IMG/VR virus record: IMGVR_UViG_3300013102_000007
Span: 1-64,000 of that record
Direction: 5' to 3' (one strand)
DNA from: a virus
Length of the DNA: 64,000 nucleotides
The number at the start of each line of letters is the position of its first letter. Position 1 is the stretch's first letter. Under the pieces are notes generated by a model that worked only from the letters and a program-made list of their open reading frames with translations, did no database searches and was not told the DNA's origin. Both the position numbers and the translations under genes were made by a program. Shown piece by piece: positions 492 to 57,584 of the stretch.

Positions 492-777
492 AAATTTTGA
501 TATGTATGTCTAGCTGGGACTGTACCGCGATCCATGCCTCCCCCGCCCATCATGGGGTTTTGATTTCCTATACCCCTCCCCCCTTCGATCTACGTTTTGG
601 AAAGTATTTAATTTCTTTGCTTACCTCTATTCTTTACGTGTGGGTTTTTGTCTAACCTATTTTTGTTTGCTAACCTATTTCGCCCGTTGTTAATTCAATG
701 GGCATTTTTGTTTTAGCTTCGTTCGTTGTGGGTAAATGCCTATGCTATGGTAAATGCCAAATTATTTTCAACTATTG

Positions 778-808
778 TTTGCATATCCAAATATTATTCT
801 TACCTTAG
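778..808 (+). promoter_or_regulatory. promoter candidate TTTG-N19-TACCTTAG
   Basis: TTTG 778-781, exactly 19-nt spacer, TACCTTAG 801-808. The same architecture recurs at 7515-7545 and 60186-60216. Confidence 0.5.
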
Positions 809-856
809 TGCTATGGTTTAGCGCGGTGCTAACCAATTACTAAAATTCTTAGCAAT

Positions 857-1063
857 ATGCCAGTATCAAACATTGAGTACAAACGTGTGATGTTACGTAT
901 CCTGCCACAGGGTACACGTTTTAAAACACATCCTAATGACCCGCGATTATACGTCAAAGGTTATATTATTGGAGCCTTAGATAAGTTCGCTTGTTATAGG
1001 TTAGGTAATATGTCTAAGATTAATTACATGTACGCTACTAGGTACGTATTTGTAAGAAAGTAA
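857..1063 (+). CDS. hypothetical protein
   Basis: 68-aa ORF downstream of a promoter candidate and followed by a hairpin-T-run terminator. Confidence 0.55.
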   Translation: MPVSNIEYKRVMLRILPQGTRFKTHPNDPRLYVKGYIIGALDKFACYRLGNMSKINYMYATRYVFVRK

Positions 1064-1071
1064 CAACTAAC

Positions 1072-1096
1072 GGGGGTGTAACAGCCCCCAATTTTT
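1072..1096 (+). terminator. rho-independent terminator
   Basis: GGGGG(tgtaacag)CCCCC hairpin followed by AATTTTT, directly after the stop of 857-1063. Confidence 0.6.
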
Positions 1097-1116
1097 AAAC
1101 TCTAATTCAAATCATC

Positions 1117-1209
1117 ATGAAAAAATTTGACATTGATTCAATCTTAATGCACACAGTTTTAGGTATAGGCTTAATAGGTGTAGCAATTGTATTTATTTAT
1201 TCACTCTAA
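1117..1209 (+). CDS. mini membrane peptide (30 aa)
   Basis: ATG-initiated ORF MKKFDIDSILMHTVLGIGLIGVAIVFIYSL with one TM helix. Below the track cutoff. Confidence 0.35.
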   Translation: MKKFDIDSILMHTVLGIGLIGVAIVFIYSL

Positions 1210-1220
1210 TTAATAACATC

Positions 1221-1403
1221 ATGAAAATTCAACAACTTATTTTAGCATTCTTTACAGTATGCACATTTATAGTTCTTATTGCTACTATCGGCTTAACTAT
1301 TGCTAACCCTAATAAGGCTGGTATATTAGGCTTTATGATTCTGATCAGCGTAGCTATCTTATCACTACAGATTAGCTTAATCATTAGAAAGGATCGTAAC
1401 TAA
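1221..1403 (+). CDS. small membrane protein (2 TM)
   Basis: 60-aa ORF with two hydrophobic helices and a basic C-terminus. Confidence 0.55.
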   Translation: MKIQQLILAFFTVCTFIVLIATIGLTIANPNKAGILGFMILISVAILSLQISLIIRKDRN

Positions 1404-1489
1404 TGGAACAACTACTAATTATCGGGTACGTATCAGCTTGTTTAGCTATTGGTGTCCTAGTCGTAACGGCTTACTTTAATATTAAATAA
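1403..1489 (+). CDS. mini membrane peptide (28 aa)
   Basis: TAATG stop/start overlap with the previous gene. MEQLLIIGYVSACLAIGVLVVTAYFNIK has a single TM. Confidence 0.4.
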   Translation: MEQLLIIGYVSACLAIGVLVVTAYFNIK

Positions 1490-1573
1490 TTATTCACTTC
1501 TATTGCTACCCTTATTAATTGGTTAAAGCTTATCACCATAACAACGGCTAGCAATACATAATAACTTAACATC

Positions 1574-1708
1574 ATGGAAAATATATTGACATACAAAGGG
1601 CATTCGATAACAATGCGAAGTACTAAGGGATTTTTTGTTACCCTTAAAACTGGCCGTCACGTATTCAGCACAATTCTACAGGCTATTAAAGCTATTGATT
1701 TAGATTAG
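1574..1708 (+). CDS. hypothetical small protein (44 aa)
   Basis: ATG ORF MENILTYKGHSITMRS..., followed by a terminator at 1733-1764. Confidence 0.4.
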   Translation: MENILTYKGHSITMRSTKGFFVTLKTGRHVFSTILQAIKAIDLD

Positions 1709-1732
1709 CCAGCTTGTTTAAATAGTTATTAT

Positions 1733-1764
1733 GCCTCTGCTATTAATTTGGTAGAGGCTTTTTT
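1733..1764 (+). terminator. rho-independent terminator
   Basis: GCCTCT(1733-1738)/AGAGGC(1753-1758) hairpin followed by TTTTTT. Confidence 0.65.
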
Positions 1765-2590
1765 ATGCCCAAATAGGTAGTAAAATACACTAAGGGTTTT
1801 TATATCGCCCGCTGTAAAAGTTTATTCACGGTATCTTAAACGCGGTTTTCATTTTTGGCTATTTTGATAGGTTTTTACACTAAGTGGAGATTATTTTTTG
1901 ATTAAAGTGTGTGTTTAATCGACATAGTACCTAGCTTAATAATGCCATAATCCCTATTTAACCACATCTAAGCGCACATTTACACGTTAACAGGCTAAAA
2001 CCCCGATTTACTGGCAAACCCTGTTTATCTTACTTATACTTCTTTATTATTATCTATTGTTATAATGCTATTGACCATTACTATTTGGGTAGCAATTCTA
2101 CAGATCATGCAAACAGATTATAAACCTTAATTAGTGTTAACGTACTTTCAATCTTAAGGTTATCTATATAATTTAATATATACTATCATTCGGCTGAGTT
2201 GCGTATCAATTTACTACACTACGTATGTGTGCGGTGTTAACTTTGCTTTCTTACTTACTTGTTATATTGTATTATATACTTTTGACCTTTTATAATGGAT
2301 AGCAACCTATTTGCCAAAACTAATAAAATACTATTTCGCGTTTAAGCCACTTTTTAAGCGATTTAAGACACTTTGTACCGTTTTGGTACTAACATACCAC
2401 CCAAAGGCAGATCGTTAAAAACAGCCTTCACAGTAGTTTAAAGGCACTATTTTTTCATACTTAGCCAAATCATATCATTTTCATACACTTTTGGCCTGTT
2501 ATAAGTCAACATATAGCTTTACTTTATGCATGCAATAGTTAAGTTATGACTTTACATTAAAATTTTTCTCCCTGATAATCAGTCAGTTAC

Positions 2591-2616
2591 AATTTATTTT
2601 AAAAATAATTTCATAA
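2591..2616 (+). repeat. 26-nt promoter-upstream repeat, copy 1
   Basis: AATTTATTTTAAAAATAATTTCATAA is identical to 57522-57547. Both copies lie just upstream of TTTG/-7 boxes. Confidence 0.85.
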
Positions 2617-2620
2617 AATG

Positions 2621-2651
2621 TTTGGTATTACAAATAAAGTTTGCACCTTTG
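2621..2651 (+). promoter_or_regulatory. promoter candidate TTTG-N19-CACCTTTG
   Basis: TTTG 2621-2624, 19-nt spacer, CACCTTTG 2644-2651 (near TAnnTTTG). Homologous in layout to the 57553-57584 promoter. Confidence 0.5.
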
Positions 2652-2911
2652 AAGTGTCGGAAGTGACAAACACAAAAATACTACTCTAGTATAGAAAGTC
2701 ACTAAGTATCTAAACTAACCCGATAAGCGGTAATAAGCTTTACACCTGTTTAATTATTACACTGGTTAGCAGTTCAACTAATTATATTTACAACGTGCCG
2801 TGATGGTTAACAAAGGTAAATGTACAGTTCTTTGAAGGTCGGGAAGTTTAAATAGAGTTCGCATATCTAACAAGGTTACATAATGCTTGAGCCATTTAAA
2901 CGAGTATAATA

Positions 2912-2986
2912 TACGGGTTAACTCAGCGGTAGAGTGATACTTCAATTCGAAGTAACAAGTCATAGGTTCGAATCCTATACCCGTAG
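2912..2986 (+). tRNA. tRNA-like gene with aberrant anticodon loop
   Basis: Perfect 7-bp acceptor TACGGGT/ACCCGTA, D arm ACTC-AGCGGTA-GAGT, T arm ATAGG-TTCGAAT-CCTAT. The anticodon arm is TACTT(C)-AATTC-(G)AAGTA with no U33 and no 7-nt canonical loop. Confidence 0.55.
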
Positions 2987-3012
2987 CAAACGAAAACAAA
3001 AAATTTAAAGTT

Positions 3013-3246
3013 ATGAAAACACTATTGTTACCTGTAAATTTACAGCAGGGTCTATTTATTGATGAAAATAACATTGTATTAGGTGTTTACACTCATCACA
3101 CTAAAATAATTGTTCCAAAATTTCCTTTTACGGGCAATGATTTAACTATCCCCGACAACATGCGGGATTATGAAATTAAAGAAAATTATGCAGATAGTTT
3201 TGGACTTAATATGTGGACTAATAAAGGCAGAAAGGAGTTATACTAA
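3013..3246 (+). CDS. hypothetical protein
   Basis: 77-aa ORF, first gene of a tightly packed plus-strand array. Confidence 0.6.
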   Translation: MKTLLLPVNLQQGLFIDENNIVLGVYTHHTKIIVPKFPFTGNDLTIPDNMRDYEIKENYADSFGLNMWTNKGRKELY

Positions 3247-3248
3247 TC

Positions 3249-3419
3249 ATGAGCAACAATAAAAAGAAACAAATACAGGAACGTTTAGAATATCTAAGGC
3301 ACGAAATTCAAAACGAACAAATCAGCTACGGGGAAATTGTAGAACTGCAAGGTTTAGCAGACGATATAGAACCAAACGATTTTGAATTATTGGAATGGGC
3401 ACAACCTAATTATAACTAG
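3249..3419 (+). CDS. hypothetical small protein (56 aa)
   Basis: ATG 3249 to TAG 3417-3419 fills the gap between neighbours exactly. MSNNKKKQIQERLEYLRHEIQNEQISYGEIVELQGLADDIEP... Confidence 0.55.
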   Translation: MSNNKKKQIQERLEYLRHEIQNEQISYGEIVELQGLADDIEPNDFELLEWAQPNYN

Positions 3420-3421
3420 TT

Positions 3422-3682
3422 ATGGCAGATCAAACAAATTTTAACCTACTAACATTAAAAACTTTATTGTTAGATACAATCACATATTTAAAATTTGGTA
3501 GTCATTTGGCACCAAATTACAAGGCAGCAAAATATAGCTTATGTGATTTGTCAGGACAAAAACGAACTATTACAAATAAACAATTACTTCACTTAATAGG
3601 AACCGTGTATAAAGACAATGACAAAGAGTCTGATTTTTGGGCTGTCATTGATAAGTTTAACGCGGCTAAATTTTTAAATTAA
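3422..3682 (+). CDS. hypothetical protein
   Basis: 86-aa ORF in the packed array. Confidence 0.6.
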   Translation: MADQTNFNLLTLKTLLLDTITYLKFGSHLAPNYKAAKYSLCDLSGQKRTITNKQLLHLIGTVYKDNDKESDFWAVIDKFNAAKFLN

Positions 3683-3690
3683 AAACTATC

Positions 3691-3789
3691 ATGCAAAATA
3701 TTTTAAACTCAGACCAATTTAAGGCAGCTACAGTTATACTAAGTATAGCTTATGCCGTATCTATTTACCTTTATTTAATCAACTGGTAA
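3691..3789 (+). CDS. mini membrane peptide (32 aa)
   Basis: MQNILNSDQFKAATVILSIAYAVSIYLYLINW with one TM. Its stop overlaps the next ATG (TAATG). Confidence 0.4.
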   Translation: MQNILNSDQFKAATVILSIAYAVSIYLYLINW

Positions 3790-3932
3790 TGGTTACACAG
3801 GAATTAACAATTAGTCAAAAGACTTTTACCGATATGATTAGCGGACTAATCGCAAGCGGTGTAACGTTTAAGGCGTTCGAATCAACAACAAACAAAAATT
3901 ATATAATTATTCAATTCTTAGGAGGTTATTAA
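3789..3932 (+). CDS. hypothetical small protein (47 aa)
   Basis: ATG overlapping the previous stop. It ends 1 nt before the ATG of 3934. Confidence 0.45.
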   Translation: MVTQELTISQKTFTDMISGLIASGVTFKAFESTTNKNYIIIQFLGGY

Positions 3933-3933
3933 A

Positions 3934-4401
3934 ATGAAAAACACAGTAACAAGCTTTAAAGAAAAAGCAGAGCAAAACGGGGCAATAGATGCAATTGCAA
4001 TTACAGACGAAAAAGGTAATCGTGTAGGTATTTCTAAATATGAAAACGGTGAGGCCGTTATTTCAGTAGATTTTAAAAATGTAGGTTATATGGCCTCATT
4101 AAATAATGAAGGTAAACAAGCTATAATAAAATTCTTAAGTGAAGAGGCTACAGAGGTAAAAACTAAACGGGAACTATACGTATTAGTTGGTATACCCGCT
4201 GAAAATGCACCCGTTCTTTTTTCAAATACGCATTTTCTAGTGTATGCTGATAAAAATGAAGCTGATCGAGCTTGTAAAATGTTCAACGATTACTTAGTAG
4301 AAAACAATAAAATGGATATGGGCAAGTTTGTAGTTGATACGTTGGAAAACGCTAAACTATCATTCCCAAATGGTAAGTTTGATTACAGCTTACTAAATTA
4401 A
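3934..4401 (+). CDS. hypothetical protein
   Basis: 155-aa ORF. Confidence 0.7.
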   Translation: MKNTVTSFKEKAEQNGAIDAIAITDEKGNRVGISKYENGEAVISVDFKNVGYMASLNNEGKQAIIKFLSEEATEVKTKRELYVLVGIPAENAPVLFSNTHFLVYADKNEADRACKMFNDYLVENNKMDMGKFVVDTLENAKLSFPNGKFDYSLLN

Positions 4402-4408
4402 GGCATAT

Positions 4409-4470
4409 CCCTGCAATTATGGTAAAGGCTGAAATAATAAGGCTTAACTGTTCGAATCAGTTTGCAGGGG
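4409..4470 (+). ncRNA. 62-nt tRNA-like element lacking an anticodon arm
   Basis: 7-bp acceptor-like stem CCCTGCA/TGCAGGG. Canonical T arm AACTG-TTCGAAT-CAGTT. One further hairpin AUUAU-(GGUAAAGGCUGAA)-AUAAU with a GG-containing loop. No anticodon stem-loop. Confidence 0.55.
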
Positions 4471-4511
4471 CTAAGGTTACAATGTCGTAGCTTTAATTAA
4501 AAATTATTACA

Positions 4512-4790
4512 ATGAAAAATAACTCATTAAACAGCATTTTAGCTGCATTTTTAACTGTAGCAAGTACAGAGGCCGAAACAATTGAAAGATTAGAAAAAAC
4601 TTTATCAGATTATAAAGCTAATCCAAATTTAGAAACTCTTTCCACCCTATCTGCGGCTGCACATTTAGTAGATTTAAAATGGCAACATTTGAAATTTGAG
4701 GAATTGCAAAAAGAAAACCCACAACCTACAAAAAACACTGACGAATCAGACACTGAATTTCTTAAAAAATTTGGTTTCAGTGCAAATTAG
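4512..4790 (+). CDS. hypothetical protein
   Basis: 92-aa ORF. Its stop at 4788-4790 lies 1 nt before hammerhead HH1. Confidence 0.65.
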   Translation: MKNNSLNSILAAFLTVASTEAETIERLEKTLSDYKANPNLETLSTLSAAAHLVDLKWQHLKFEELQKENPQPTKNTDESDTEFLKKFGFSAN

Positions 4791-4791
4791 A

Positions 4792-4849
4792 GTTTATCTG
4801 ATGAGACTTTAATAGTCGAAATAGTAGTGTAAAAGCTACTATCATAAAC
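4792..4849 (+). ncRNA. hammerhead ribozyme, type I (HH1)
   Basis: Stem I GUUUAU/AUAAAC. Core CUGAUGA 4798-4804. Stem II GACU-UUAAU-AGUC. GAA 4818-4820. Stem III AUAGUAG-loop-CUACUAU. C17 at 4843. Confidence 0.85.
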
Positions 4850-4866
4850 AAATAAAAATTAAAATC

Positions 4867-5094
4867 ATGGAAAATCAAACATTTAAATCAACAGAATTAA
4901 TTAAAGGCACTAGATATTTTTTAGATGGTCTTAAAGATGTTAGTGGTGTATTTAGTCACATTAAGGACGGTCGGGTTTATTTTACCGATTTCAAAGAAGA
5001 GAGGCCACAAATTATGCCATACTTAGAGAAAAACGGAGACGATACAGATTTCAATCAACAACTTTTTGATATTTGGGCAGTAGAAAAAGTTTAA
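4867..5094 (+). CDS. hypothetical protein (TRYxLD..KDVSGV family)
   Basis: 75-aa ORF, paralogous to 13954-14154 and 14157-14363. Its stop codon lies inside stem I of HH2. Confidence 0.65.
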   Translation: MENQTFKSTELIKGTRYFLDGLKDVSGVFSHIKDGRVYFTDFKEERPQIMPYLEKNGDDTDFNQQLFDIWAVEKV

Positions 5095-5147
5095 CTGATG
5101 AGGCTTAAAATAGCCGAAACACGGGGTGAAAATCCCCTGTCTTAAAC
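5089..5147 (+). ncRNA. hammerhead ribozyme, type I (HH2)
   Basis: Stem I GUUUAA/UUAAAC. Core CUGAUGA 5095-5101. Stem II GGCU-UAAAAU-AGCC. GAA 5116-5118. Stem III ACA(C)GGGG-loop-CCCCUGU. C17 at 5141. Confidence 0.85.
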
Positions 5148-5164
5148 AATATAATCACGAAATT

Positions 5165-5641
5165 ATGAACAAAGAAGTAACAAACGGGTATGCTAACCTA
5201 AGAAGGTTAAAACCTACAGCACCATTTAGCCAACGTTTAAACGATTTTATTAATGATCGGGCAGAGGGATTAAGATATATAGATGGTGCTTTTCCTGAAC
5301 TATCATTTGAGGAATTTAAAGCAGAATTTAAAAGCAGTGGTGTAATGCCTATCAGTAACGAACATTGTGAAAACAATATTTTCGGGGACATTGAAACAAA
5401 CATAGCTTTTAGGGCTTGGCATGACTCAATACATTTAGAACTAAACGAAGGTTTTGAATATTTTTCTGAAGCTATTGTAGCATTTAAACAAATGAACGAA
5501 TTGCCTTTAGATTGGGTTTTTGAAAGAAATTTAATTTATTGTGAAGTTATAGGGCAAGCTGCCTACCATAGAAACACAGGCAATTTTGTTGAAGATCAAA
5601 GAGAATTTACAATTAACTTTTTAGAATCGGAAAAATTTTAA
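5165..5641 (+). CDS. hypothetical protein
   Basis: The track ORF 5126-5641 starts at a GTG inside HH2. The first ATG (5165) lies 23 nt after the predicted cleavage site. Confidence 0.65.
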   Translation: MNKEVTNGYANLRRLKPTAPFSQRLNDFINDRAEGLRYIDGAFPELSFEEFKAEFKSSGVMPISNEHCENNIFGDIETNIAFRAWHDSIHLELNEGFEYFSEAIVAFKQMNELPLDWVFERNLIYCEVIGQAAYHRNTGNFVEDQREFTINFLESEKF

Positions 5642-5645
5642 AGCT

Positions 5646-5831
5646 ATGAAAACTATAAAAATAACAGATGAAAACTTTTTAAATCTAAAGGAATTTGGTC
5701 ATGTAGTACCGAAAGATTACAGCAAATTTAAAGTATCTAAAGAGTATTTAGTTTGTGGCTTAGATGAAACTGATTTATTAAAAGTAAGATGTACTCAAAA
5801 TTGTCCAGTTAATATAAAAATAGTAGATTAA
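5646..5831 (+). CDS. hypothetical protein
   Basis: 61-aa ORF in the packed array. Confidence 0.6.
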   Translation: MKTIKITDENFLNLKEFGHVVPKDYSKFKVSKEYLVCGLDETDLLKVRCTQNCPVNIKIVD

Positions 5832-5835
5832 AGCC

Positions 5836-6072
5836 ATGCAAAATATCGAAATTAAGCTGCCACAACTCAACAAAGGTAATTGTTTATTATTTACCACTCT
5901 GTTTAAATTAAAGTATCCTAAAGCTAAAGTAATTGTTTGCTGGAATAAAAAGAGTAATATAGTTTCCTTTAGTGCTGTCTTACATGGTAAGAGGTATTTT
6001 TACAAACGTAAAGATAGGAAACAAAGTAAATTCTGGTTTAATGGTCATGTAGTTCCAATGGAACATAAATAA
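5836..6072 (+). CDS. hypothetical protein
   Basis: 78-aa basic ORF in the packed array. Confidence 0.6.
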   Translation: MQNIEIKLPQLNKGNCLLFTTLFKLKYPKAKVIVCWNKKSNIVSFSAVLHGKRYFYKRKDRKQSKFWFNGHVVPMEHK

Positions 6073-6080
6073 AATCTGTT

Positions 6081-6302
6081 ATGAAACAAAAAGAATTATT
6101 ACAGCATATAAAAGACAATTCTATTTGTCTAAATCAATTAAGTTATGATAAATTAACTGGCAACTCTTATGAATTAAGAGCAAAAACAGGGGGATTTAAA
6201 ACCTTTATCCTTTACCAAAATCCAGAGTCTGATTATTGGAATATTTATTTATCAGAGGGTAACGAAATAGCTAAAATAGAAAACAATTTTAACAACTTTT
6301 AA
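6081..6302 (+). CDS. hypothetical protein
   Basis: 73-aa ORF in the packed array. Confidence 0.6.
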   Translation: MKQKELLQHIKDNSICLNQLSYDKLTGNSYELRAKTGGFKTFILYQNPESDYWNIYLSEGNEIAKIENNFNNF

Positions 6303-6311
6303 AAACTGGTT

Positions 6312-7508
6312 ATGAAAAATATTAAAATCTATGGTGATGCTATATCGGCTAACCTTTACCTAATCACAGACTTTTTAAAACGAAGCTCTATACAATTTAG
6401 TTGGGTTAGTTCTCTAACAAATACTAATGCTATTCGCTTTGAAGATGGAACTATCATATATAACCCTACAGTTAACGAAGTAGCAGATAAATTGGGATGG
6501 GTAGCAGAGCCAAAATGTACTGAATATGATGTATCTATTTTTGGCGGTGGTGTAGCTGGTTTAAGTGCAGCTGTTTACGCAGCATCTGAGGGTTTAAGAA
6601 CGGTAATAGTTGAACGTGAAACAATAGGGGGACAGGCCGGAACAAGTTCTTTAATCGAAAATTATTTAGGTTTTCCAAAAGGTATTTCGGGCGCTGAACT
6701 GGCTTTAAGGGCAAGGGAACAGGCTTTAAAATTTGGAGTTGAAATTCTATTACTAAAAGAAGGTATTAAAGGAGTTTCTAAAGATAATAATATTAACATT
6801 CAATTAGCTACAGGTGAAACAATAACCTCTAAAACTACAATCTGTGCTACAGGTGTAGAATACGCAAAATTGAACTTAGCAAACGAAAACAAGTACCTTA
6901 ATAAAGGTTTGTATTATGGTGCTGGTGCAAGTGAAGCTCCATTTTGTAAACACAAAGATGTTTATGTTGTTGGAGGTGGTAATTCAGCAGGTCAGGCCGC
7001 TGTCTACTTTTCTAAATTTGCTAAACGTGTCTACATGGTAATTCGAAAAGGAAATTTATCTGAAACTATGTCAGATTATTTAGTAAAACATATTTCAACT
7101 ATCACAAACATTTCAATACTATATAATTCAGAGGTTACAGACCTTAGCGGTAAAAAAGGTTTAGAAGCTATTAAAATATTTAATAGCAAAACTAATCAAA
7201 CCGACTTTTTTAAAACATCTAAATTATTTGTGTGTATAGGTGGAAAACCAAATACAGATTGGGCTAAAGATACTGCAATTTGCAGGGATCGTAACGGCTA
7301 TCTTTACACTGGAAACGATTTAATAGAATTAGACCAGTATAAGGAATGTTGGAAACATGACAGACAGCCTTTTCATTTAGAAACTAGTGTTGCAGGTGTG
7401 TTTGCCGCTGGTGATGTTAGATTTAATTCTGTAAAAAGAGTAGCTTCAGCAGTAGGCGAAGGGGCTATGGCAGTAACACAAATACATCAATATTTATCAA
7501 AATTGTAA
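6312..7508 (+). CDS. thioredoxin-reductase-like FAD/NAD(P)H oxidoreductase lacking the redox CxxC, with N-terminal extension
   Basis: FAD Rossmann GGGVAGLSAAVYAA, second dinucleotide site VVGGGNSAGQAA, C-terminal GVFAAGDV. The position of the TrxB CATC site reads YGAGASEA. Confidence 0.8.
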   Translation: MKNIKIYGDAISANLYLITDFLKRSSIQFSWVSSLTNTNAIRFEDGTIIYNPTVNEVADKLGWVAEPKCTEYDVSIFGGGVAGLSAAVYAASEGLRTVIVERETIGGQAGTSSLIENYLGFPKGISGAELALRAREQALKFGVEILLLKEGIKGVSKDNNINIQLATGETITSKTTICATGVEYAKLNLANENKYLNKGLYYGAGASEAPFCKHKDVYVVGGGNSAGQAAVYFSKFAKRVYMVIRKGNLSETMSDYLVKHISTITNISILYNSEVTDLSGKKGLEAIKIFNSKTNQTDFFKTSKLFVCIGGKPNTDWAKDTAICRDRNGYLYTGNDLIELDQYKECWKHDRQPFHLETSVAGVFAAGDVRFNSVKRVASAVGEGAMAVTQIHQYLSKL

Positions 7509-7514
7509 AAAACA

Positions 7515-7545
7515 TTTGCATAAGCAAATAATTTATTTATCTTAG
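7515..7545 (+). promoter_or_regulatory. promoter candidate TTTG-N19-TATCTTAG
   Basis: TTTG 7515-7518, 19-nt spacer, TATCTTAG 7538-7545, 24 nt upstream of ATG 7569. Confidence 0.5.
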
Positions 7546-7568
7546 CATTATATTTAAAAACTAAAATT

Positions 7569-7991
7569 ATGAATGTACAGGAAATTATTAAAAGAGCTAC
7601 TGCAAATGGTGGTGGCCTAACGTTTAAAGCTGATTACAGTGCGCCTAAATCTGGCTATATGGTAGCCTTAACAGGTGGTTTGGTTTGTAAAGAGTCAGAA
7701 CTTGAAAAGGTTATGTTTAGGTATTTACATGACCATCATCACATTACAACAGGTGAAAATTATTACTTTGGTTTATGGTTAAAAGATGGTGTTGCTTACT
7801 TAGATGTTAGTCAAAACATTCAGGATAAAGAATACGCTGTGTTTCAAGGTATAGCCCGTGGACAAAAGAGCATTTACCATATTGATAGCAATAAAATTAT
7901 TGATCTACCGACCGGACAAAAAACCGGAACTACAGAACAACAACTATCATACGCTCGTCAAAAAGCTGAACAAATATTTCAAACTCTATAG
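7569..7991 (+). CDS. hypothetical protein
   Basis: 140-aa ORF downstream of a promoter candidate. Confidence 0.65.
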   Translation: MNVQEIIKRATANGGGLTFKADYSAPKSGYMVALTGGLVCKESELEKVMFRYLHDHHHITTGENYYFGLWLKDGVAYLDVSQNIQDKEYAVFQGIARGQKSIYHIDSNKIIDLPTGQKTGTTEQQLSYARQKAEQIFQTL

Positions 7992-8037
7992 CCATGCAAC
8001 TATTATTATTAATCCTAGTGCGCTGTGCCTGTGTGGC

Positions 8038-8205
8038 ATGGTGTGCTTTAATTTTATCTTTCTTATGAAAAAGCTAAGCCCAAAATTTTATCTTATGCTT
8101 AGGAAGCTATTAATTATAGACCTTCTTTTGCAAATACCTCAGATGATAATTATTATAGCATTAATGTTTGCTATGTTATTAGGTCATTTTATTTACATTC
8201 GTTAA
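8038..8205 (+). CDS. possible small membrane protein
   Basis: In-frame ATG within track ORF 7858-8205, lying after the end of 7569-7991. Very hydrophobic product. Start uncertain. Confidence 0.3.
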   Translation: MVCFNFIFLMKKLSPKFYLMLRKLLIIDLLLQIPQMIIIIALMFAMLLGHFIYIR

Positions 8206-8223
8206 CCTTTAAAATTTAAAGTC

Positions 8224-8862
8224 ATGTTACAACTAACAAACTCAACAGACACATTAAAATTTGTAGCCTTTATTCAAGAGGCAATGAACTACGTTAGCTA
8301 TTTAACTCCTACTAAAATAAATTCAGGTGGGTGTGGTATTTTTGCCAGAGCGTTACATAAACTATTATCAGATAATAATATTGAGTCTGAAATTATAGCT
8401 TTATACTTTGATGAAAAAAGTGATAAGGCAGAGAAAAATTTAATAGATTACGTAAATAATAACAATAAAAAAGTATTGAGTGAAGCTGGTGCCGATCACA
8501 TAGTTTTAAAAGTTAATGAAATTTATGTAGATTCTACAGGTTTAGTAAATATGGCCGCTTTAATGAGTAGAAATACTGTTAAGTTAACATTAGATCAACT
8601 AAACGACATAATTGATAAAGGTGAATGGAATGAAGTATTTGATAGGGAACAAGAACCTTTTATAATTGAAAAATTACAGGAAGTTTTTAATAACTACGAA
8701 AATTATCATTTCGGTTTGTATATTAACAAACAATTAGCAGAAAGAAAAATCAGATTGTCCGATCATACTATTAAAACCGCTAAACGTTTACAAAGGGAAG
8801 CCATGAGTAGTATGTTTGGGTTTTCAGGTAATATAAATAACAACAATAATAGTCCATTTTAA
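8224..8862 (+). CDS. hypothetical protein
   Basis: 212-aa ORF with an Asn-rich C-terminus. Confidence 0.65.
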   Translation: MLQLTNSTDTLKFVAFIQEAMNYVSYLTPTKINSGGCGIFARALHKLLSDNNIESEIIALYFDEKSDKAEKNLIDYVNNNNKKVLSEAGADHIVLKVNEIYVDSTGLVNMAALMSRNTVKLTLDQLNDIIDKGEWNEVFDREQEPFIIEKLQEVFNNYENYHFGLYINKQLAERKIRLSDHTIKTAKRLQREAMSSMFGFSGNINNNNNSPF

Positions 8863-8888
8863 TTTTCACATTTTAACAAACTAACGTC

Positions 8889-9197
8889 ATGAGAAAGATT
8901 TTCATCGTAGCAATCTACAAACTATCATCGATTCAAAAAACAGTAATCGGTACATTATCAGAACATTTAGTAGGTGATAACCACACAGTTCACCACAAAA
9001 TTTGCACAGGTCTTATTATAGGATTTATGGGCGTACTTTTAAGTAAAACAGGGGATGGTGCTTGGCATGTAGTGTGCGATTGGGCTGGCTATGGTTTACA
9101 CGGTGTAGGTATGTTACCATTTGTTGAGCCAGTGGCAAAAGCCTATGCCAAACGAATTAACAAAATTGATAACAAAGGGGGTAATAGTGGAGACTAA
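8889..9197 (+). CDS. hypothetical membrane protein
   Basis: 102-aa ORF with hydrophobic segments. Confidence 0.55.
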   Translation: MRKIFIVAIYKLSSIQKTVIGTLSEHLVGDNHTVHHKICTGLIIGFMGVLLSKTGDGAWHVVCDWAGYGLHGVGMLPFVEPVAKAYAKRINKIDNKGGNSGD

Positions 9198-30486: not shown

Positions 30487-33400
30487 CTATTTATTTTGAT
30501 AATCTACTCTTGTTTTTCTCTCATTTGCTTTAGCTTTTAAAGCTTCTACAGCGGTTTCTTTCAAAGCTTCACCTTCTTCACCCATAGATTGTAGTGTCAA
30601 TTGTTCGGCCATTTTATCAGCAACATTTCTAATAACCTTCTCGTATTCTTCTTTAGTAAGTCTATTTTTATATTTTTCAAAAGGGTACTTACTTTTTATT
30701 TCATTTAAAGATTTATCTCTTTGTTGAAAATAAGTAACTTGTTGTTCAGGATTCAAATCATAGTCTTGTTTCAAAGTTGTTATTTTATCTACAATACCTG
30801 CATCCCTAATAGCTTTATCTAAATCTTTTGTTTTTTCACCACCTCTATCTTGTTTAACAAGTTCTTTTGTAATTCTGGTAGCAATACGTCTCATATTACC
30901 AACTTCTTGAGTAGTTGCACCAAACATACTAACACTTGCTGAAAGAGCAGAAGCATAGTTTATAAATCTATCATATTTAGGTACACCGTACTGCGCTTTT
31001 CCCTCTTCAGTTAATCTTTGCTCATCAACTACAATATCGTTGAGTTCCGCGTTTAAAACGCCATAACGTTTAAGAATAAAATCCTTATCGGTCTGAGTAG
31101 CTGCTGAAAAAGCTTTAAAAGCATCAACACCTCTTATTATAGGCAATCCAGCTGATCCTAGCGGTAAAAGACCTACTTTTAAGGCATTTGGTGTCATAGT
31201 TCTACCTAGCTCTGCATCCTTAGCTTCTTTATCAGTGTAAATAGCTTCTGTAGTCAAATCAATAACAGGGTTAAAAATTAATTCTAAGCTTGCACCACCT
31301 ATACCACCGTATAAAAAGTCTCTTAAAAGATTTTGAGTTCCAGAAACTTCTGCTTTGGTTAAAGCCACATCTGTTTCTTTTGTAACAGTCTGATTTAATT
31401 TTTTCTTTTTATTTTCATCATCTACCATAGAAGAAATAACACCTTGAATGGCGGCACCGGAACCTACTATACTTGCATATTTTAATCCTTGGGATACTTT
31501 ATTGAAAGCGTATATACCAGCTAAATTACCCATCATATTTCTAAGAGCATGACCTTTCGAAACACCATCTTGAGAACTTAAAGCTCTGTTAGTATTTGAT
31601 ATAAGTTCCATTTTACTATTGATAGCAAATGAAGAGAATAAAAGATAAGTTTTAACTAAACTATTTTTACTGAATTTACTTTTCATTGTAGCATCAGACT
31701 CATTCAATGTAACAGAAGTCATATGATTAGCGTAGTCCATAGCTTTTCTATCTACGTTTGTAGGACTTAAGTCTACACCAGCTTCGTTATTTTTCTTTTG
31801 ATAATCTATATAAAAACTTAACCAACCTATTTTAGCAGTTAATTTATCTACGCTTGCTAAAGGTTTTAAAGATAATTCTGTACCTCTGTCAATAGTTTTT
31901 TCAACACCCTCGCCTAAACTTCTTAGTAATGTTCTACTATTTGTACCATCAAACTGTCTTTGTTTTATATTACCTTGAGGCAACTCACTATATATAGCAT
32001 CCCTCCATTTAACATTAGATTGATCTATAAGTGCAACTGCATCTTTAGTATTCCCAGCTAAGTGTGATAAAGCTTGAACAAAGGCAGTATTAGTTTTCAA
32101 GCCAATATTTACAACCTCAACAAATTGTTTAGGGGCTGCAAATAAACCACCTAATGTTTGAGCTATACCTAACTTAGCAGCGGTTCTCCAAGTTCTTTTT
32201 AAAGTTTCAGGATTACTTTTGCCGTACTGCATAGCAGCAACAGTTTCAAAAACTTTTTGTTCAGCTAAAGCACTGTAAGTTTCAAACAGTCCAGTATCTG
32301 AAAATTTTTCAACAACAGGTGAAGATTTAAGGTCTAAAGCATTTTTAATATAAACTCTATCTGATCCTGTAAAAGCATCATAAGACATAATAGATAAATT
32401 CGGTAAAAAATTATCCATAAAATTACCATTCAAAACAGATTCACTAGGTAATTGATTACCTTTTAACTGTCTTGTTTTACCTGATCCTGATTTAGCAGTG
32501 TTTATACTAGAAAATGATTGACTGCCATAAGGATCAATACCTGCTGCTTGTCCTGATAATGCCTCTAATTGATTGGTGTTACCACCTAAAAAATCATATT
32601 TCCTAGTGGTATAATTTTGCCAATCAGCTTCAATATCAATATTACTATTAACACGAGCATTAAAAAAGAAATCATCTTTTATACTATCATGACTTTCTCT
32701 AGAAAGTTTATAAAATTCTTTGTGGCCTTGATCGAATAAACCAAATAAATCGCGAGAACTTATTTTAGGTTCAACACTTACAACAACACCTTTATCATTT
32801 CTTTCAACATTACCTATAATAGGTTCTAGAGCTTTTTCTAAATTTTTAATATAGTTTTCATTTTCAGCTTTAAAACTTGAATTCTGTTCAGCTCTTAATT
32901 TTAAACGCTCCAAAGTATTTTGCCAAGCGGCTAATCTATTGCCATATTCGGCAGTTATTTGTTCTGGTGTCCAAGAATTTCTGTATTGAACAACATCCGC
33001 ATAAATACCTAATTGAATATTTTTTACAACATTTTTAAAATCTTTAGAATATTTTTTATTTAAACTAACTAATTTTTGTCTTACTCCATCTACAAATTTA
33101 TAATGTTTATTATTAGTATTAAATACTAAATCAGAAAGACCTGTTACATTTTCAATTTCAGGTATTTTCATCTGATTTTTAAGTCTTAAATCTTTACGTT
33201 GACTACCAGAACCAAATTCATCAAATTGTTTTTGTAACCAAACTTTAGGTACAAGAATTGCTTTTTGAATAGTGCCTATTAAATTTTCATCTAAAGATTT
33301 TTTATAAACTTCATTTTTAGCAACTATATCACCTAATCCAGTCACGCTACCATAATTAACTAAATTAGTCAATCCGGCTACTAAGCTAGGTAAATTTGAG

Positions 33401-36400
33401 TCTTTAACTCCGTCAATGTCTATATTTTTAACTTTGTCATTAATAAAATCAATTTCTCTTTTAGTAAAATCCACATTGCCATTTTCATCAATAACAGTCA
33501 AATCAATATCTTCAACCATATCTTTTAAAACCTTGGCTGTTTCTCTATAGGCATCAACCAATTTAGGTTTAGCATCTTCTAAGGTTTTTGTTAATTTTTC
33601 TAAAAGCGCATCAGGATCGCCTGAGTAGAGATTATCTATTACAGAAGTATCTACACCCATTTCATCTAATCTCTCTTTTACAGCCTCTATTCTTGCTTCT
33701 TTATACTCTTTGGTTAATTTTTCAGCATCAGAAAGTATTTTTTGTGCATTTTTATATGCATCACTTACTTTAGCCAAATCACTACCATTTCTAAGTTCAA
33801 GTGTTGGACTTTCTAAAAGTTTAGCTATTTCTGAAGTAGATTTAACTAAATCATCTATGTTGTTTATATATTTTGGATTAATCGAAATAATTTCCCTTAA
33901 TTTAGTTTTTAAATCAGCCGGAATATTTTTATTTAAAAGAGATTTAATTTTTCTTTTATTTTTACTAACCTCATCTAATTTATCTAAATATCTAGCATCA
34001 CCTACTACTTTAAGTAGTTTTTTACCAAAATTTTGTAATGTAGCTAAAGTATTGGCTTTAGATAACTCAGTTACTAATCTTTGGTGAGTACTATTGCTAA
34101 TTTTATCTTTACCGTTAGATGTTAAAAGATTATTAAGTATTTTACCCAATTCTTTGTTTGCTGTTTTAACACTTTCTCTTGTATCTTTAACACCTTTTTT
34201 TATACCTTCTCCAATACCACTAGACAATGTTTTTAAATGTTGCACTAAAGCATCACGATTAGATATTGTGGTTGTACCTGTTATTTTACCCTCTGTTTTT
34301 GCTTTAACAACTTCTTTAATAGGAGCTTGTGTTGAAGTTTTTTGGGCTTCTACACTGGCTTCAACTCCCCCTTTTACAGCTCTATTAAATGCTTCTTCTG
34401 TAAATTTGTTTTTAACTCCTATAAAATCTTGAAAATCTTTAACGGTTTTAATAGTACCACCATCATAAACTTTTTTAGCATAATCTACTAAAGGTTTAAT
34501 ATCAGTTTCAGCATTAGCTTTTTTAGCTAAATCTTGCATGTTAACTAAAATTTCTCCCTGTCTTTCTTTAGCACGTACGAAATCTGGATTAGTCGCTTCA
34601 TATTCTTTAGCAGAATCTACAGCTTTATAATAAATATCATCTATTTCTTTAGAATGTTTTAAACCTAAAGCTGTAGATAAAGCTTTGGCAGATTTAATTG
34701 TACCATCAGCTATACTTAAAACAGCATATTCTAATAAAGCTTTTACACTCTCAGGGTTGAAGCCTGATGTAGCAGTTCTTCTGGATTCTTTTATACCAGC
34801 TAACAATCTTTGTTTAACAACTTCTTTGTAGTCAGTAATACCTTGTTCTCCACCTTTAAAAGCTTCTAAAATATTTTTAGGCGCAACAACTGGTGCCCCT
34901 GATTGTTCAGCAACTATTTTGTTTAATTCATATTGATCTTGTTGTATGTTTGCTTCAGCTTCTTGTTTTTGAACTTCTAACTCAGATTTAGCAACAGGAT
35001 CATTAGAAATTTTAGCAGTTTGTTCAGTTTGCTCTATAACTTGTTCTGATTCTTTAATACGATCAGCAATTTCTGTTTTTTGTACTTCCGTAGGGTTATA
35101 TAAGCGATAAACTTGTTCAACCTTTGCTTCTAGTTGAGATTTAACTTCATTAGGTAAATCAGAACTACGTATGCCCTCAATAAATTTACTAGGGTCTTTT
35201 GATATATTGGCAGTTAATTCTTTAATATCAGCTGCATTTTGCAATGCAACTTGACTTAAGTGTTGTTGATTTTTAGTAGCCTCATCTTTTGCATCAATAG
35301 CTTTAACACCAAGCTCTACAGATTCAGCTCGTAAGTCATCTGCTGATTTGTTTAATTTGAAAATAGCATCAATCTGATCGGGAGTAGCTTTGATAAAGTT
35401 TGCAATTTTATTTTGTTTATTTCTTTCTGCTATATCTTTTGAGACCTTAGCATCTAATGCAATTTTATTACCAATTGCTTTACCAACAGCCGGAGCCTCG
35501 AAAGCAAACCCTGTACCAAATTGTACAGCAGCATCCCTCCAATTTATAGGTTGGCCATTTAACAAATTATCACCAACTGAAGTAGCCCCAAAAGTTGATC
35601 CTACACCAATAGCTTGAAATAATTTTTGAGTTACTTCTCCACCTTTTAAATAACCTTTTTCAAATAATTTTTGAGTTACGCCTTTACCAAGCATCATTTG
35701 AGCTTCTATTGTGTAACCTTCTACAGCACCTTTAAGTCCTTCTTTACCAGCAGCAACCAAAGATTCGCCTGTTGTAGCTCCTTCATTTCTTGAAGTACCA
35801 TAACCTGACAATGCTTTAGAAGCAGTTAAGAATTTAACTAAACTTGAAAAATATTGAGGTGTCGCTGCTGCTATACTTTCTCCACCAGTGGCTGTTGTAG
35901 CCATAATTAAAGGAACAGCTGATACAACACCATGACCTACATCTAATAATCCTCTACCTAAATCTGAAGATACTGTACCATCACCCAATGAATTTGCGCG
36001 TACTGTTAATGATCTTTCTCCATCACGTCTAGCATTTTCTGCAAGATTATCAAACAAACCACCTTTTTGAGAAGTATATTTTTTACCAGTTACACCAGTA
36101 TAAATATCTCCTATTACATCATCAACAAAAGTTGTAGCACCAGCTAAAGGCTCATAAATAAATTTACCAAAACCTTCTGACAAAGTTGATATACCAGCAG
36201 CATCAGCAAATTTAGTTAAACTATCACGACCTGCATCACCCTCTGAAATTTGTGCTTCATTAGCTAAATGTTCATTGAGAGTTGGTAACTTCACATTAGG
36301 ATTGGCAGCTTGATAAGTTGCTAAGGCATTTTGTAATTGATTTTCTGATAAACTATATTTATTTGGATTACTGAAAACAGGTAACTTAACATCAGGATTC

Positions 36401-36825
36401 GCAGAACTGTAAACACTAGATGCGTTTTGTAATTGTTCTTGAGATAATTGAAATTTTTCAGGTTTTTTCGCAGTAATCTGCACTTCATCTAACTGAGTAG
36501 CCGGAATGGTTTGTTCAATAAAATCAGGTGTAGGAAATCCAAAAGGATTATTATTAACACCTTGTTCAGGAAGTTTACCTTCAGGATATTGACTTAAGTC
36601 TACTTTTGGCTCTTCAGTTTTAGTAAATTCAGGAAATTTAGCATTTACCTCAGAAAGGTTTTTATACTTACCACTATTCGCTGTAGCTACGTAATCACGT
36701 AAAAGTTCCTTATCATAAGAATGAAGTTCAGGAAACTTACCATAAACTTCATCCAAATTTTTATACTTACCACTATTCGCTGTAGCTACGTAATCTCTTA
36801 ATAATTGTTCTAATTTTTCGTCCAT
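30487..36825 (-). CDS. giant virion protein (tape-measure / internal ejection protein-like), 2112 aa
   Basis: Uninterrupted 6.3-kb ORF with long coiled-coil stretches and Gly/Ala-rich hydrophobic segments. N-terminal 17-aa motif LLRDYVATANSGKYKNL is duplicated. Confidence 0.8.
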   Translation of the reverse strand: MDEKLEQLLRDYVATANSGKYKNLDEVYGKFPELHSYDKELLRDYVATANSGKYKNLSEVNAKFPEFTKTEEPKVDLSQYPEGKLPEQGVNNNPFGFPTPDFIEQTIPATQLDEVQITAKKPEKFQLSQEQLQNASSVYSSANPDVKLPVFSNPNKYSLSENQLQNALATYQAANPNVKLPTLNEHLANEAQISEGDAGRDSLTKFADAAGISTLSEGFGKFIYEPLAGATTFVDDVIGDIYTGVTGKKYTSQKGGLFDNLAENARRDGERSLTVRANSLGDGTVSSDLGRGLLDVGHGVVSAVPLIMATTATGGESIAAATPQYFSSLVKFLTASKALSGYGTSRNEGATTGESLVAAGKEGLKGAVEGYTIEAQMMLGKGVTQKLFEKGYLKGGEVTQKLFQAIGVGSTFGATSVGDNLLNGQPINWRDAAVQFGTGFAFEAPAVGKAIGNKIALDAKVSKDIAERNKQNKIANFIKATPDQIDAIFKLNKSADDLRAESVELGVKAIDAKDEATKNQQHLSQVALQNAADIKELTANISKDPSKFIEGIRSSDLPNEVKSQLEAKVEQVYRLYNPTEVQKTEIADRIKESEQVIEQTEQTAKISNDPVAKSELEVQKQEAEANIQQDQYELNKIVAEQSGAPVVAPKNILEAFKGGEQGITDYKEVVKQRLLAGIKESRRTATSGFNPESVKALLEYAVLSIADGTIKSAKALSTALGLKHSKEIDDIYYKAVDSAKEYEATNPDFVRAKERQGEILVNMQDLAKKANAETDIKPLVDYAKKVYDGGTIKTVKDFQDFIGVKNKFTEEAFNRAVKGGVEASVEAQKTSTQAPIKEVVKAKTEGKITGTTTISNRDALVQHLKTLSSGIGEGIKKGVKDTRESVKTANKELGKILNNLLTSNGKDKISNSTHQRLVTELSKANTLATLQNFGKKLLKVVGDARYLDKLDEVSKNKRKIKSLLNKNIPADLKTKLREIISINPKYINNIDDLVKSTSEIAKLLESPTLELRNGSDLAKVSDAYKNAQKILSDAEKLTKEYKEARIEAVKERLDEMGVDTSVIDNLYSGDPDALLEKLTKTLEDAKPKLVDAYRETAKVLKDMVEDIDLTVIDENGNVDFTKREIDFINDKVKNIDIDGVKDSNLPSLVAGLTNLVNYGSVTGLGDIVAKNEVYKKSLDENLIGTIQKAILVPKVWLQKQFDEFGSGSQRKDLRLKNQMKIPEIENVTGLSDLVFNTNNKHYKFVDGVRQKLVSLNKKYSKDFKNVVKNIQLGIYADVVQYRNSWTPEQITAEYGNRLAAWQNTLERLKLRAEQNSSFKAENENYIKNLEKALEPIIGNVERNDKGVVVSVEPKISSRDLFGLFDQGHKEFYKLSRESHDSIKDDFFFNARVNSNIDIEADWQNYTTRKYDFLGGNTNQLEALSGQAAGIDPYGSQSFSSINTAKSGSGKTRQLKGNQLPSESVLNGNFMDNFLPNLSIMSYDAFTGSDRVYIKNALDLKSSPVVEKFSDTGLFETYSALAEQKVFETVAAMQYGKSNPETLKRTWRTAAKLGIAQTLGGLFAAPKQFVEVVNIGLKTNTAFVQALSHLAGNTKDAVALIDQSNVKWRDAIYSELPQGNIKQRQFDGTNSRTLLRSLGEGVEKTIDRGTELSLKPLASVDKLTAKIGWLSFYIDYQKKNNEAGVDLSPTNVDRKAMDYANHMTSVTLNESDATMKSKFSKNSLVKTYLLFSSFAINSKMELISNTNRALSSQDGVSKGHALRNMMGNLAGIYAFNKVSQGLKYASIVGSGAAIQGVISSMVDDENKKKKLNQTVTKETDVALTKAEVSGTQNLLRDFLYGGIGGASLELIFNPVIDLTTEAIYTDKEAKDAELGRTMTPNALKVGLLPLGSAGLPIIRGVDAFKAFSAATQTDKDFILKRYGVLNAELNDIVVDEQRLTEEGKAQYGVPKYDRFINYASALSASVSMFGATTQEVGNMRRIATRITKELVKQDRGGEKTKDLDKAIRDAGIVDKITTLKQDYDLNPEQQVTYFQQRDKSLNEIKSKYPFEKYKNRLTKEEYEKVIRNVADKMAEQLTLQSMGEEGEALKETAVEALKAKANERKTRVDYQNK
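36659..36696 (-). repeat. 38-nt perfect direct repeat, copy 1 (in-frame)
   Basis: TTTTTATACTTACCACTATTCGCTGTAGCTACGTAATC is identical to 36758-36795, offset 99 nt. Confidence 0.85.
36758..36795 (-). repeat. 38-nt perfect direct repeat, copy 2 (in-frame)
   Basis: Identical to 36659-36696. Encodes the duplicated DYVATANSGKYKN segment. Confidence 0.85.
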
Positions 36826-57097: not shown

Positions 57098-57122
57098 TGT
57101 TTTTAAATTTTAATTTTTATTG

Positions 57123-57193
57123 TTTGCTCTGCGAGACTCGAACTCGCATCTACTGCGGAGAAGCAGCTTTCTACCAAATTGAACTAAGAGCAA
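57123..57193 (-). tRNA. tRNA-like gene, anticodon uncertain (UCC if the 7-nt loop UCUCCGC is used)
   Basis: Acceptor TTGCTCT/AGAGCAA and T arm GCGAG-TTCGAGT-CTCGC are perfect. The anticodon arm folds either as a 7-nt loop with C33 and a 2-nt variable region, or as a 6-nt loop. Confidence 0.5.
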
Positions 57194-57349
57194 TCCATTA
57201 GTCTTTCCTAAAAGTCAACCTATCCTCCTTATATCCTCAACAACAATGCTACACTTTTCTACAAAACTTCTACGTCTTTCCGTATATCGTCATGTTGTTA
57301 CGTCTTGAATATATCTACTTTCGGTATTCGTCTATCTGAATTTGTGTTG

Positions 57350-57423
57350 TAGTTCCTGAAGGATTTGAACCTCCGACCAGATGAATATAAGTCATCCACT
57401 CTACCAGACTGAGTTAAGGAACC
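57350..57423 (-). tRNA. tRNA-Ile (anticodon UAU)
   Basis: GGTTCCT/AGGAACT acceptor, D arm ACTC-AGTCTGGTA-GAGT, anticodon arm GATGA-CTTATAT-TCATC, T loop TTCAAAT. Confidence 0.8.
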
Positions 57424-57491
57424 ATGTGCAGGTATATTATTGACGTAACATACCTACTTGAAAGTTTATTAGATTCATCCGAACCGATAAA

Positions 57492-57523
57492 CAAATATAA
57501 TAACAATAATTGAAACAAACAAA
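57492..57523 (-). promoter_or_regulatory. promoter candidate TTTG-N20-TATATTTG (minus strand)
   Basis: Reverse complement reads TTTG (57523-57520), 20-nt spacer, TATATTTG (57499-57492). Divergent from the plus-strand promoter at 57553-57584. Confidence 0.5.
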
Positions 57524-57547
57524 TTTATTTTAAAAATAATTTCATAA
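57522..57547 (+). repeat. 26-nt promoter-upstream repeat, copy 2
   Basis: Identical to 2591-2616. Confidence 0.85.
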
Positions 57548-57552
57548 CCCTA

Positions 57553-57584
57553 TTTGAATATGTAAAATTAAATTTGTACATTTG
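57553..57584 (+). promoter_or_regulatory. promoter candidate TTTG-N20-TACATTTG
   Basis: TTTG 57553-57556, 20-nt spacer, TACATTTG 57577-57584. Heads the tRNA array. Confidence 0.55.

Follow-up and report, generated by a model that had tools for sequence, protein, structure and literature searches.

Two compact type I hammerhead ribozymes flank a 75-amino-acid ORFan in a tailed phage and probably act in intercistronic mRNA processing

What does a self-cleaving ribozyme do between two small genes of a phage? The question is raised by a 64,000-nucleotide stretch of IMG/VR virus record IMGVR_UViG_3300013102_000007, here called the window, in which an earlier note had reported one complete type I hammerhead at 4792 to 4849. 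The window comes from an uncultured, lytic-looking tailed phage with terminase, portal, and tail genes, a GC content of 33%, and a genome of about 78 kb. Its terminase is 28.5% identical to those of Flavobacterium and Cellulophaga phages. A megablast search of positions 3000 to 9000 against INPHARED gave no match, and neither did tblastn with the ORF at 46817 to 48172 (451 aa, without a PHROG match). Searches of viral contigs by gene C (Table 1) or the terminase returned no related loci, and a second lineage of this phage was not found. The structural module holds a 2,112-aa ORF on the minus strand (30487 to 36825) without a PHROG match, and a neighboring 1,263-aa ORF (39897 to 43688) has a match to a family of virion structural proteins. 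Seventeen tRNA genes are densely arrayed on both strands of 57122 to 59736, including one on the minus strand with an undetermined anticodon (57122 to 57193) and a minus-strand tRNA-Ile with anticodon TAT (57349 to 57423).

The element described in the note, HH1, was confirmed base for base in its stems, core, loop, GAA, and C17. Every invariant core base is present, and the three helices are Watson-Crick; stem III starts with A15.1-U16.1 and could be extended by a U4828-G4835 wobble. The type I assignment also stands: loops cap stems II and III, and both RNA ends leave from the open stem I. As had been stated, HH1 lies one nucleotide after a stop codon, since the TAG at 4788 to 4790 is followed by A4791 and then stem I. 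The proposed span of 4792 to 4849 is right for the core unit but overlooks the family-conserved A4791 and A4850-A4851, with which the functional unit becomes 4791 to 4851. The helices are AU-rich (29% GC for HH1 as a whole), and the minimum free energy (MFE) structure of the isolated 61-nt RNA is the hammerhead (−13.0 kcal/mol, z = −2.8).

Table 1. Positions of the two hammerheads, their parts, and the adjoining genes in the window
Feature	Position	Strand	Basis
Gene A, 92 aa, function unassigned	4512..4790	+	ORF list; called gene in public contig
HH1 with family-conserved flanks	4791..4851	+	Sequence, descriptor match, model R1, MFE fold
HH1 stem I, 5' strand GUUUAU (2.6 to 2.1)	4792..4797	+	Pairs with 4844-4849
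HH1 core C3 U4 G5 A6 U7 G8 A9	4798..4804	+	Invariant or nearly so in family alignment
HH1 stem-loop II: GACU (4805-4808), loop UUAAU (4809-4813), AGUC (4814-4817); G10.1-C11.1	4805..4817	+	
HH1 G12 A13 A14	4818..4820	+	Sequence
HH1 stem-loop III: AUAGUAG (4821-4827) with CUACUAU (4836-4842)	4821..4842	+	7 Watson-Crick pairs
HH1 predicted cleavage site, C17 (4843) / A1.1 (4844)	4843..4844	+	Hammerhead consensus
HH1 stem I, 3' strand AUAAAC	4844..4849	+	Sequence
Gene B, 75-aa ORFan between HH1 and HH2	4867..5094	+	ORF list
HH2, second complete type I hammerhead, with flanks	5088..5149	+	Descriptor, model R1, MFE fold
HH2 proper	5089..5147	+	
HH2 flanks: A before stem I, AA after stem I	5088; 5148-5149	+	
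HH2 stem I: GUUUAA with UUAAAC	5089-5094; 5142-5147	+	
HH2 core CUGAUGA	5095-5101	+	
HH2 stem-loop II: GGCU-UAAAAU-AGCC	5102-5115	+	
HH2 GAA	5116-5118	+	
HH2 stem-loop III: ACA(C)GGGG-UGAAAAU-CCCCUGU, one bulged C	5119-5140	+	
HH2 predicted cleavage site, C17 = 5141	5141..5142	+	Hammerhead consensus
Gene C, 158 aa, PHROG 7806 (unknown function)	5165..5641	+	ORF list, PHROG

A second complete copy, HH2, lies about 300 bases downstream of HH1 and had been overlooked. HH2 agrees with the consensus of the subfamily described below at every conserved position, and the MFE structure of the isolated RNA is again the hammerhead (−15.7 kcal/mol, z = −2.5). When both copies were folded in 121-nt contexts, the weak, AU-rich stem I competed with alternative pairings. 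The residue H17 after U16.1 is not G in either copy (C4843 and C5141), and both have the core-adjacent pairs G10.1-C11.1 and A15.1-U16.1 together with A1.1-U2.1 in HH1 and U1.1-A2.1 in HH2. The two copies differ by compensatory changes at 2.1/1.1 (U-A versus A-U) and 10.2/11.2 (A-U versus G-C). Their stem III sequences are wholly different and paired in both, while the stem I strands are identical at five of six positions. Judged by these sequence features, HH1 and HH2 are a genuine ribozyme pair.

A chance origin of the pair is excluded. A hammerhead descriptor, applied to both strands of the window as well as to 300 dinucleotide-preserving shuffles, matched twice in the window versus an expected 0.0033 per shuffled window, which bears out the note's judgment that chance was very unlikely. 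The bare CTGATGA heptamer occurs about six times per shuffle.

The covariance-model check proposed in the note had a divided outcome. Rfam 15 found no hammerhead in the window at gathering thresholds, and in a search of 251 nt, RF00163, RF00008, RF02276, RF02275, and RF02277 did not reach their gathering scores, with no match at an E value of ≤10. The only Rfam family that aligned to HH1 and HH2 was RAGATH-1 (RF03152), in permissive scans, with 27.3 and 30.2 bits, respectively, versus a gathering score of 56.3; its upstream-hairpin columns align to the window copies with noncanonical pairs. For Rfam, the note's refuting condition of no covariance-model hit formally applies. In contrast, our own covariance model, R1, built from 36 nonredundant members from other viral contigs with the window copies left out of training, scored HH1 at 53.0 bits (E = 2.6e−10) and HH2 at 52.1 bits (E = 4.3e−10) with filters off, within the range of 41 to 80 bits across the family. 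Together with the structural features, all of which are present, this supports the hammerhead identity claimed for HH1. Rfam 15 also matched none of about 25 ribozymes of the same design at about ten other loci (L003, L019, L022, L032, L036, L081, L087, L023, L001, L008, and L038), and the best Rfam score of the most consensus-like subfamily member was 21.1 bits, with HH9 (RF02275; gathering score, 52). Since the whole compact subfamily fails in Rfam, the miss reflects a gap in model coverage and is not evidence against the motif.

Elsewhere in the window and in the remaining genome, R1 found nothing above 12.7 bits. The remainder of the circularly permuted genome of about 78 kb is covered by two further contigs (L291 and L292), and as these hold no further copy, the phage has exactly two hammerheads. 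Other classes of self-cleaving ribozymes were absent from the window at an E value of ≤1.

Members of the subfamily were gathered by pattern scans of viral contigs, metagenomes, and bacterial genomes. Among viral contigs, 8 stretches had the close pattern and at least 120 had the general pattern; the metagenomes contributed 35 stretches, mostly marine. Bona fide members by R1 occur in bacterial genomes of Mucilaginibacter, Daejeonella, Agriterribacter, Legionella, Aliivibrio, Parvibaculum, and Bdellovibrionales. The viral set comprises at least 161 strict type I hammerheads (at least 141 unique) in at least 88 loci. At least 36 loci carry two to six copies, always on one strand and with a median spacing of 620 nt among the matches listed.

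The design is compact and uniform. Among the 161 listed members, 150 have a stem I of exactly 6 bp, and 135 have a stem II that spans 13 nt together with its loop; loop II follows U-N-A-N-U and is most often UUAAU, as in HH1. G10.1-C11.1 and A15.1-U16.1 are each found in 160 of 161 and C17 in 145 of 161. A model-based alignment of 143 distinct listed members shows pairing of at least 99.5% in all three helices and 659 double-change cells, versus pairing of 31 to 37% in register-shift controls; this covariation is partly circular because the tools that gathered the members favor paired sequences. The flanking bases were required by no search. Of 141 listed members, 135 have A directly before stem I, and the two positions after it hold A in 124 and 114. 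Loop II opens with U in 119 of 120 members of the listed set. HH1 and HH2 share the 6-bp stem I, the 4-bp stem II, the U...U loop of 5 to 6 nt, and the flanking A and AA, with R1 scores in the family range.

Other arrays of the subfamily vary in size and stem III. One locus (L003) has four hammerheads within 1.7 kb (6776 to 8507), each at the 3' end of a small ORF whose stop is either the UAA of stem I or the UGA inside the CUGAUGA core; L006, L007, L152, and L165 are further examples of such arrays. The stem I strands at L003 are unrelated (GUUUAA, GCAUAA, AUCUAA, and GAUUAA). The densest array among the loci examined is on a contig of an Aliivibrio metagenome-assembled genome (L250, JAAGZR010000219.1), with eight hammerheads of the same subfamily in about 4 kb (533 to 4574), and a further contig of that assembly (L214) has three more. 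A variant with an identical 41-nt stem III (ACUGGCGACAACGAUGGACGAAUACCAACUCUAUCGCCGGU) is found at L001 (8669 to 8750) and at L137 to L167 (e.g., L138, 10932 to 11008), in at least 17 mostly marine metagenome contigs. This recurrence reflects either one abundant phage lineage or a stem III insert with a function of its own.

The family also points to a tertiary contact between stem I and loop II, a kind of interaction that natural hammerheads require to be active under physiological Mg2+. Across 140 listed members, the final base of loop II and the base directly 3' of stem I combine as U·A in 111 cases, A·U in 13, and G·C in 2, with other combinations in 14; the mutual information of 0.32 bits was reached in none of 200 permutations. 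Both window copies carry the U/A combination and the flanking A bases (U4813/A4850 with A4791 and A4851 in HH1 and U5111/A5148 with A5088 and A5149 in HH2). Natural type I and III hammerheads have a conserved reverse-Hoogsteen loop-loop pair (PMC6155905), and by analogy, the covarying U·A/A·U pair fits this contact. This pattern suggests that the stem I junction docks on loop II. A longer pseudoknot between loop II and the flanks was rejected in favor of a single tertiary pair: complementarity of at least 4 bp equaled the permuted expectation (28 versus 26.4 and 25 versus 30). By these computations, the motif is present, nonrandom, and part of a family with structural and tertiary covariation.

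The genes around the ribozymes are small and poorly connected to known proteins. Gene A has no Pfam, PHROG, or PADLOC match and no homolog in related loci. The only database match of gene B is itself; an exhaustive HMMER search returned candidates that are repetitive, low-complexity proteins and were discarded as spurious. Gene C has orthologs with 57 to 71% identity in six contigs (L010 to L015), where gene order differs and no hammerhead is present, so the ribozymes are sporadic and not syntenic. That the ribozymes are not conserved with this neighborhood in the six contigs is a point against a role in processing these transcripts. In several of these relatives, gene C is the first gene after a divergent intergenic region, and homologs of the window ORFs at 3422 to 3682 and 3789 to 3932 are located downstream of gene C in the relatives and upstream of it in the window. 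Judging by gene order, the small-gene module is rearranged relative to L010 to L015.

The spacing between ribozymes and genes is regular. The TAA stop of gene B (5092 to 5094) lies inside stem I of HH2, and the next ATG lies 23 nt past the predicted cut in both copies (4844 to 4867 for gene B and 5142 to 5165 for gene C). A start codon 20 to 29 nt past the cut is found in 73 of 141 listed family members. About half of the upstream ORFs of listed members terminate inside the ribozyme, and upstream stops cluster in three main places: the UAA of stem I (32 members), the UGA of the core (26 members), and just upstream of stem I (18 members; e.g., UAG at −8 from C3). The idea that three-frame stop codons act against non-stop translation was weak and was set aside: all frames are closed in 57% of the ribozymes, and the third frame is closed in 63 to 70% versus a background of 55%.

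HH1 and HH2 sit in a run of small, closely spaced plus-strand genes, and there are no plus-strand terminator-like sites between 1758 and 8017. Neither stem III is followed by a U-tract, and both were rejected as intrinsic terminators. A sigma-70 promoter scan gave 73 matches versus 77 expected, which is chance level, and the Bacteroidota −33/−7 pattern gave 10 versus 6.4 ± 2.3 expected, none of them close to where the gene run begins. Positions 1 to 2900 are poor in ORFs and contain four plus-strand terminator-like hairpins (541 to 557, 682 to 703, 1072 to 1089, and 1733 to 1758); this may be a noncoding or small-RNA region upstream of the small-gene run. A tRNA-like gene at 2912 to 2987 (plus strand; Rfam tRNA, 44.6 bits; ARAGORN, Asn with anticodon ATT) lies 25 nt ahead of the first small ORF (3013) in the ribozyme-bearing run. 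Its anticodon arm is aberrant (TACTT-CAATTCG-AAGTA) and can be read as having A in place of U at position 33 or as a 5-nt loop on a 6-bp stem; the gene could be a processing signal instead of a decoding tRNA.

We consider it likely that two functional type I hammerheads cut a polycistronic RNA and make gene B a separate monocistronic mRNA of 298 nt. Each element would fold into three helices around its CUGAUGA...GAA core within the polycistronic RNA, and the A-rich junction bordering the 6-bp stem I would dock on the U-N-A-N-U loop II. Each would then cut itself 3' of C17 (4843/4844 and 5141/5142) by 2'-O-transesterification, during or after transcription, and the two cuts would release a gene B RNA spanning 4844 to 5141. 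Owing to the type I topology, the folded ribozyme would remain with the upstream mRNA: nearly all of it would stay on the 3' end of that RNA as a compact fold with a 2',3'-cyclic phosphate. The downstream RNA would start with a 5'-OH and a short, unstructured, A-rich leader of 23 nt before the AUG. For gene B, the 3' strand of HH1 stem I would become the 5' end of the mRNA. We infer cleavage, cotranscription of genes A, B, and C, and effects on stability and translation from this arrangement; general knowledge of RNA decay suggests that the three genes would be uncoupled in both respects. The role is probably intercistronic mRNA processing.

The two copies may not be equally active. HH1 has U2.1-A1.1, found in 3 of the 143 listed members, and it is the sole listed member with U15.2-A16.2, giving an AUC triplet instead of GUC, where 140 of 143 have C15.2-G16.2; both unusual core-adjacent positions are still paired. 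Its stem I is displaced by other pairings in the MFE fold of the 121-nt context, another point against the processing role. With these two variants, its AU-rich helices, and this context fold, HH1 could cleave slowly. Carried further, the same features, beside an HH2 that is consensus throughout, would make HH1 a degenerating or slow duplicate, with HH2 the only efficient ribozyme and the main cut between genes B and C. We regard this as unlikely, as HH1 retains the invariant core, the core-adjacent pairs, the flanking A bases, and the loop II U, and its R1 score is not below that of HH2. Moreover, hammerhead cleavage sites are required to follow the NUH rule, and the AUC of HH1 satisfies it. 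That the pair is a chance match or a nonfunctional relic is extremely improbable. The lack of an Rfam match at the gathering score would agree with it, as would the ease with which short AU helices arise in an AT-rich genome, but about 0.003 matches are expected per window versus 2 observed, the family model gives E values of about 3e−10, and both copies carry features that are absent from every search pattern.

Other explanations assign the pair another purpose. The ribozymes could mark the boundaries of a horizontally exchanged ribozyme-ORFan-ribozyme cassette, with RNA cleavage secondary; their conserved 5' halves of about 30 nt would act as recombination or microhomology sites or would merely travel along. 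Genes A and B are missing from the relatives, which carry gene C in another gene order without ribozymes; gene B is also an ORFan, and exactly two ribozymes in 78 kb surround one gene. The genes flanked by hammerheads are described as nonconserved in the literature (PMC3088659, PMC6155905), and 39 homology breakpoints between related loci fall in hammerheads versus 25 ± 5 at random positions. This excess is small, however, and would be expected of any intergenic site, no pair of genomes was found that differs by exactly one ribozyme-bounded unit, and the conserved catalytic core, tertiary pair, and sense orientation indicate selection on RNA and not on DNA. We therefore hold the cassette to be rather improbable. 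We also give a very low probability to an autonomous RNA module, in which an RtcB-type ligase or ribozyme reversal would circularize the gene B RNA into a stable circular phage mRNA. In a milder variant, a ribosome terminating at the stop in or next to stem I would gate cleavage and so time the release of the downstream gene. Cleavage followed by ligation by the same routes, giving gene B as a 298-nt circle or joining A to C in a spliced transcript, is highly improbable. Two hammerhead cuts would leave 5'-OH and 2',3'-cyclic phosphate termini suited to ligation, the route is known from retrozymes and viroid-like RNAs (PMC6155905), the nearly identical stem I strands could form a hybrid stem I, and Perreault et al. 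raised the possibility (PMC3088659). Against it, the same authors searched prophage arrays for circular or spliced RNAs without finding any (PMC3088659), a hybrid stem I would place an A·A mismatch at 1.1/2.1, beside the scissile bond, and the unrelated stem I strands of adjacent ribozymes in other arrays (L003) indicate that cross-pairing is not a feature of the family.

Intercistronic processing, the reading we prefer, is in line with earlier work. Hammerheads that flank small, nonconserved phage ORFs were described by Perreault in 2011 (PMC3088659) and by de la Peña in 2017 (PMC6155905), and processing of transcripts into single-gene mRNAs was proposed for such clusters (PMC3088659, PMC6155905). 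Three tandem prophage arrangements cut in vitro at all sites, and one did so in vivo in Escherichia coli as well (PMC3088659). The biological role of phage hammerheads is an acknowledged open question (PMC6155905, PMC6765202). The locus studied here shares with the Perreault clusters the canonical core, close copies on the sense strand, and a small nonconserved flanked ORF: two sense-strand copies lie 298 nt apart around the ORF at 4867 to 5094 in phage DNA. The tested cases were prophages of Clostridium scindens, Azorhizobium caulinodans, and Agrobacterium tumefaciens, which belong to other phyla and include other topologies. In contrast, this is a lytic-looking relative of Flavobacteriia phages with two copies and one ORFan.

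Among well-studied hammerheads, the Schistosoma Smα and amniote HH9 (RF02275) ribozymes are similar in being type I with a 6-bp proximal stem I followed by unpaired bases, a 4-bp stem II with a loop of 5 to 6 nt, and a contact between the loop and stem I that includes a U·A-type pair. They differ in that the window copies have no distal stem I; the unpaired A and AA begin single-stranded flanks. RAGATH-1 (RF03152) is likewise a bacterial and phage type I hammerhead with a short stem I, but its model calls for a hairpin upstream, with 5 bp in stem I and a minimal stem II. No convincing counterpart of this hairpin precedes the window copies because the coding sequences of genes A and B end there. 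RiboJ is an engineered insulator placed upstream of a gene, derived from the sTRSV type III hammerhead, that leaves a hairpin on the downstream RNA. As in RiboJ, the hammerheads in the window would provide the cistron that follows with a 5' end and leader that are defined and independent of context, but the natural type I topology would leave the ribozyme with the upstream RNA.

Against this background, bacterial and phage type I hammerheads and hammerheads beside small nonconserved ORFs have been published before, and the known picture is unchanged; this locus adds one example and some detail. The phage is an unusually clean case, with two intact ribozymes in about 78 kb isolating one ORFan; the second copy and the layout of two ribozymes around one ORFan are modest additions, as are the definition of the compact subfamily and its absence from Rfam. 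The subfamily supplies a model for the tertiary contact, in which the A-rich end of stem I would dock on loop II through a pair that covaries between U·A and A·U, and a fixed geometry of stop codon, ribozyme, 23-nt leader, and start codon. It is also a blind spot of Rfam 15, whose gathering thresholds miss this abundant subfamily, so that routine annotation underreports phage ribozymes.
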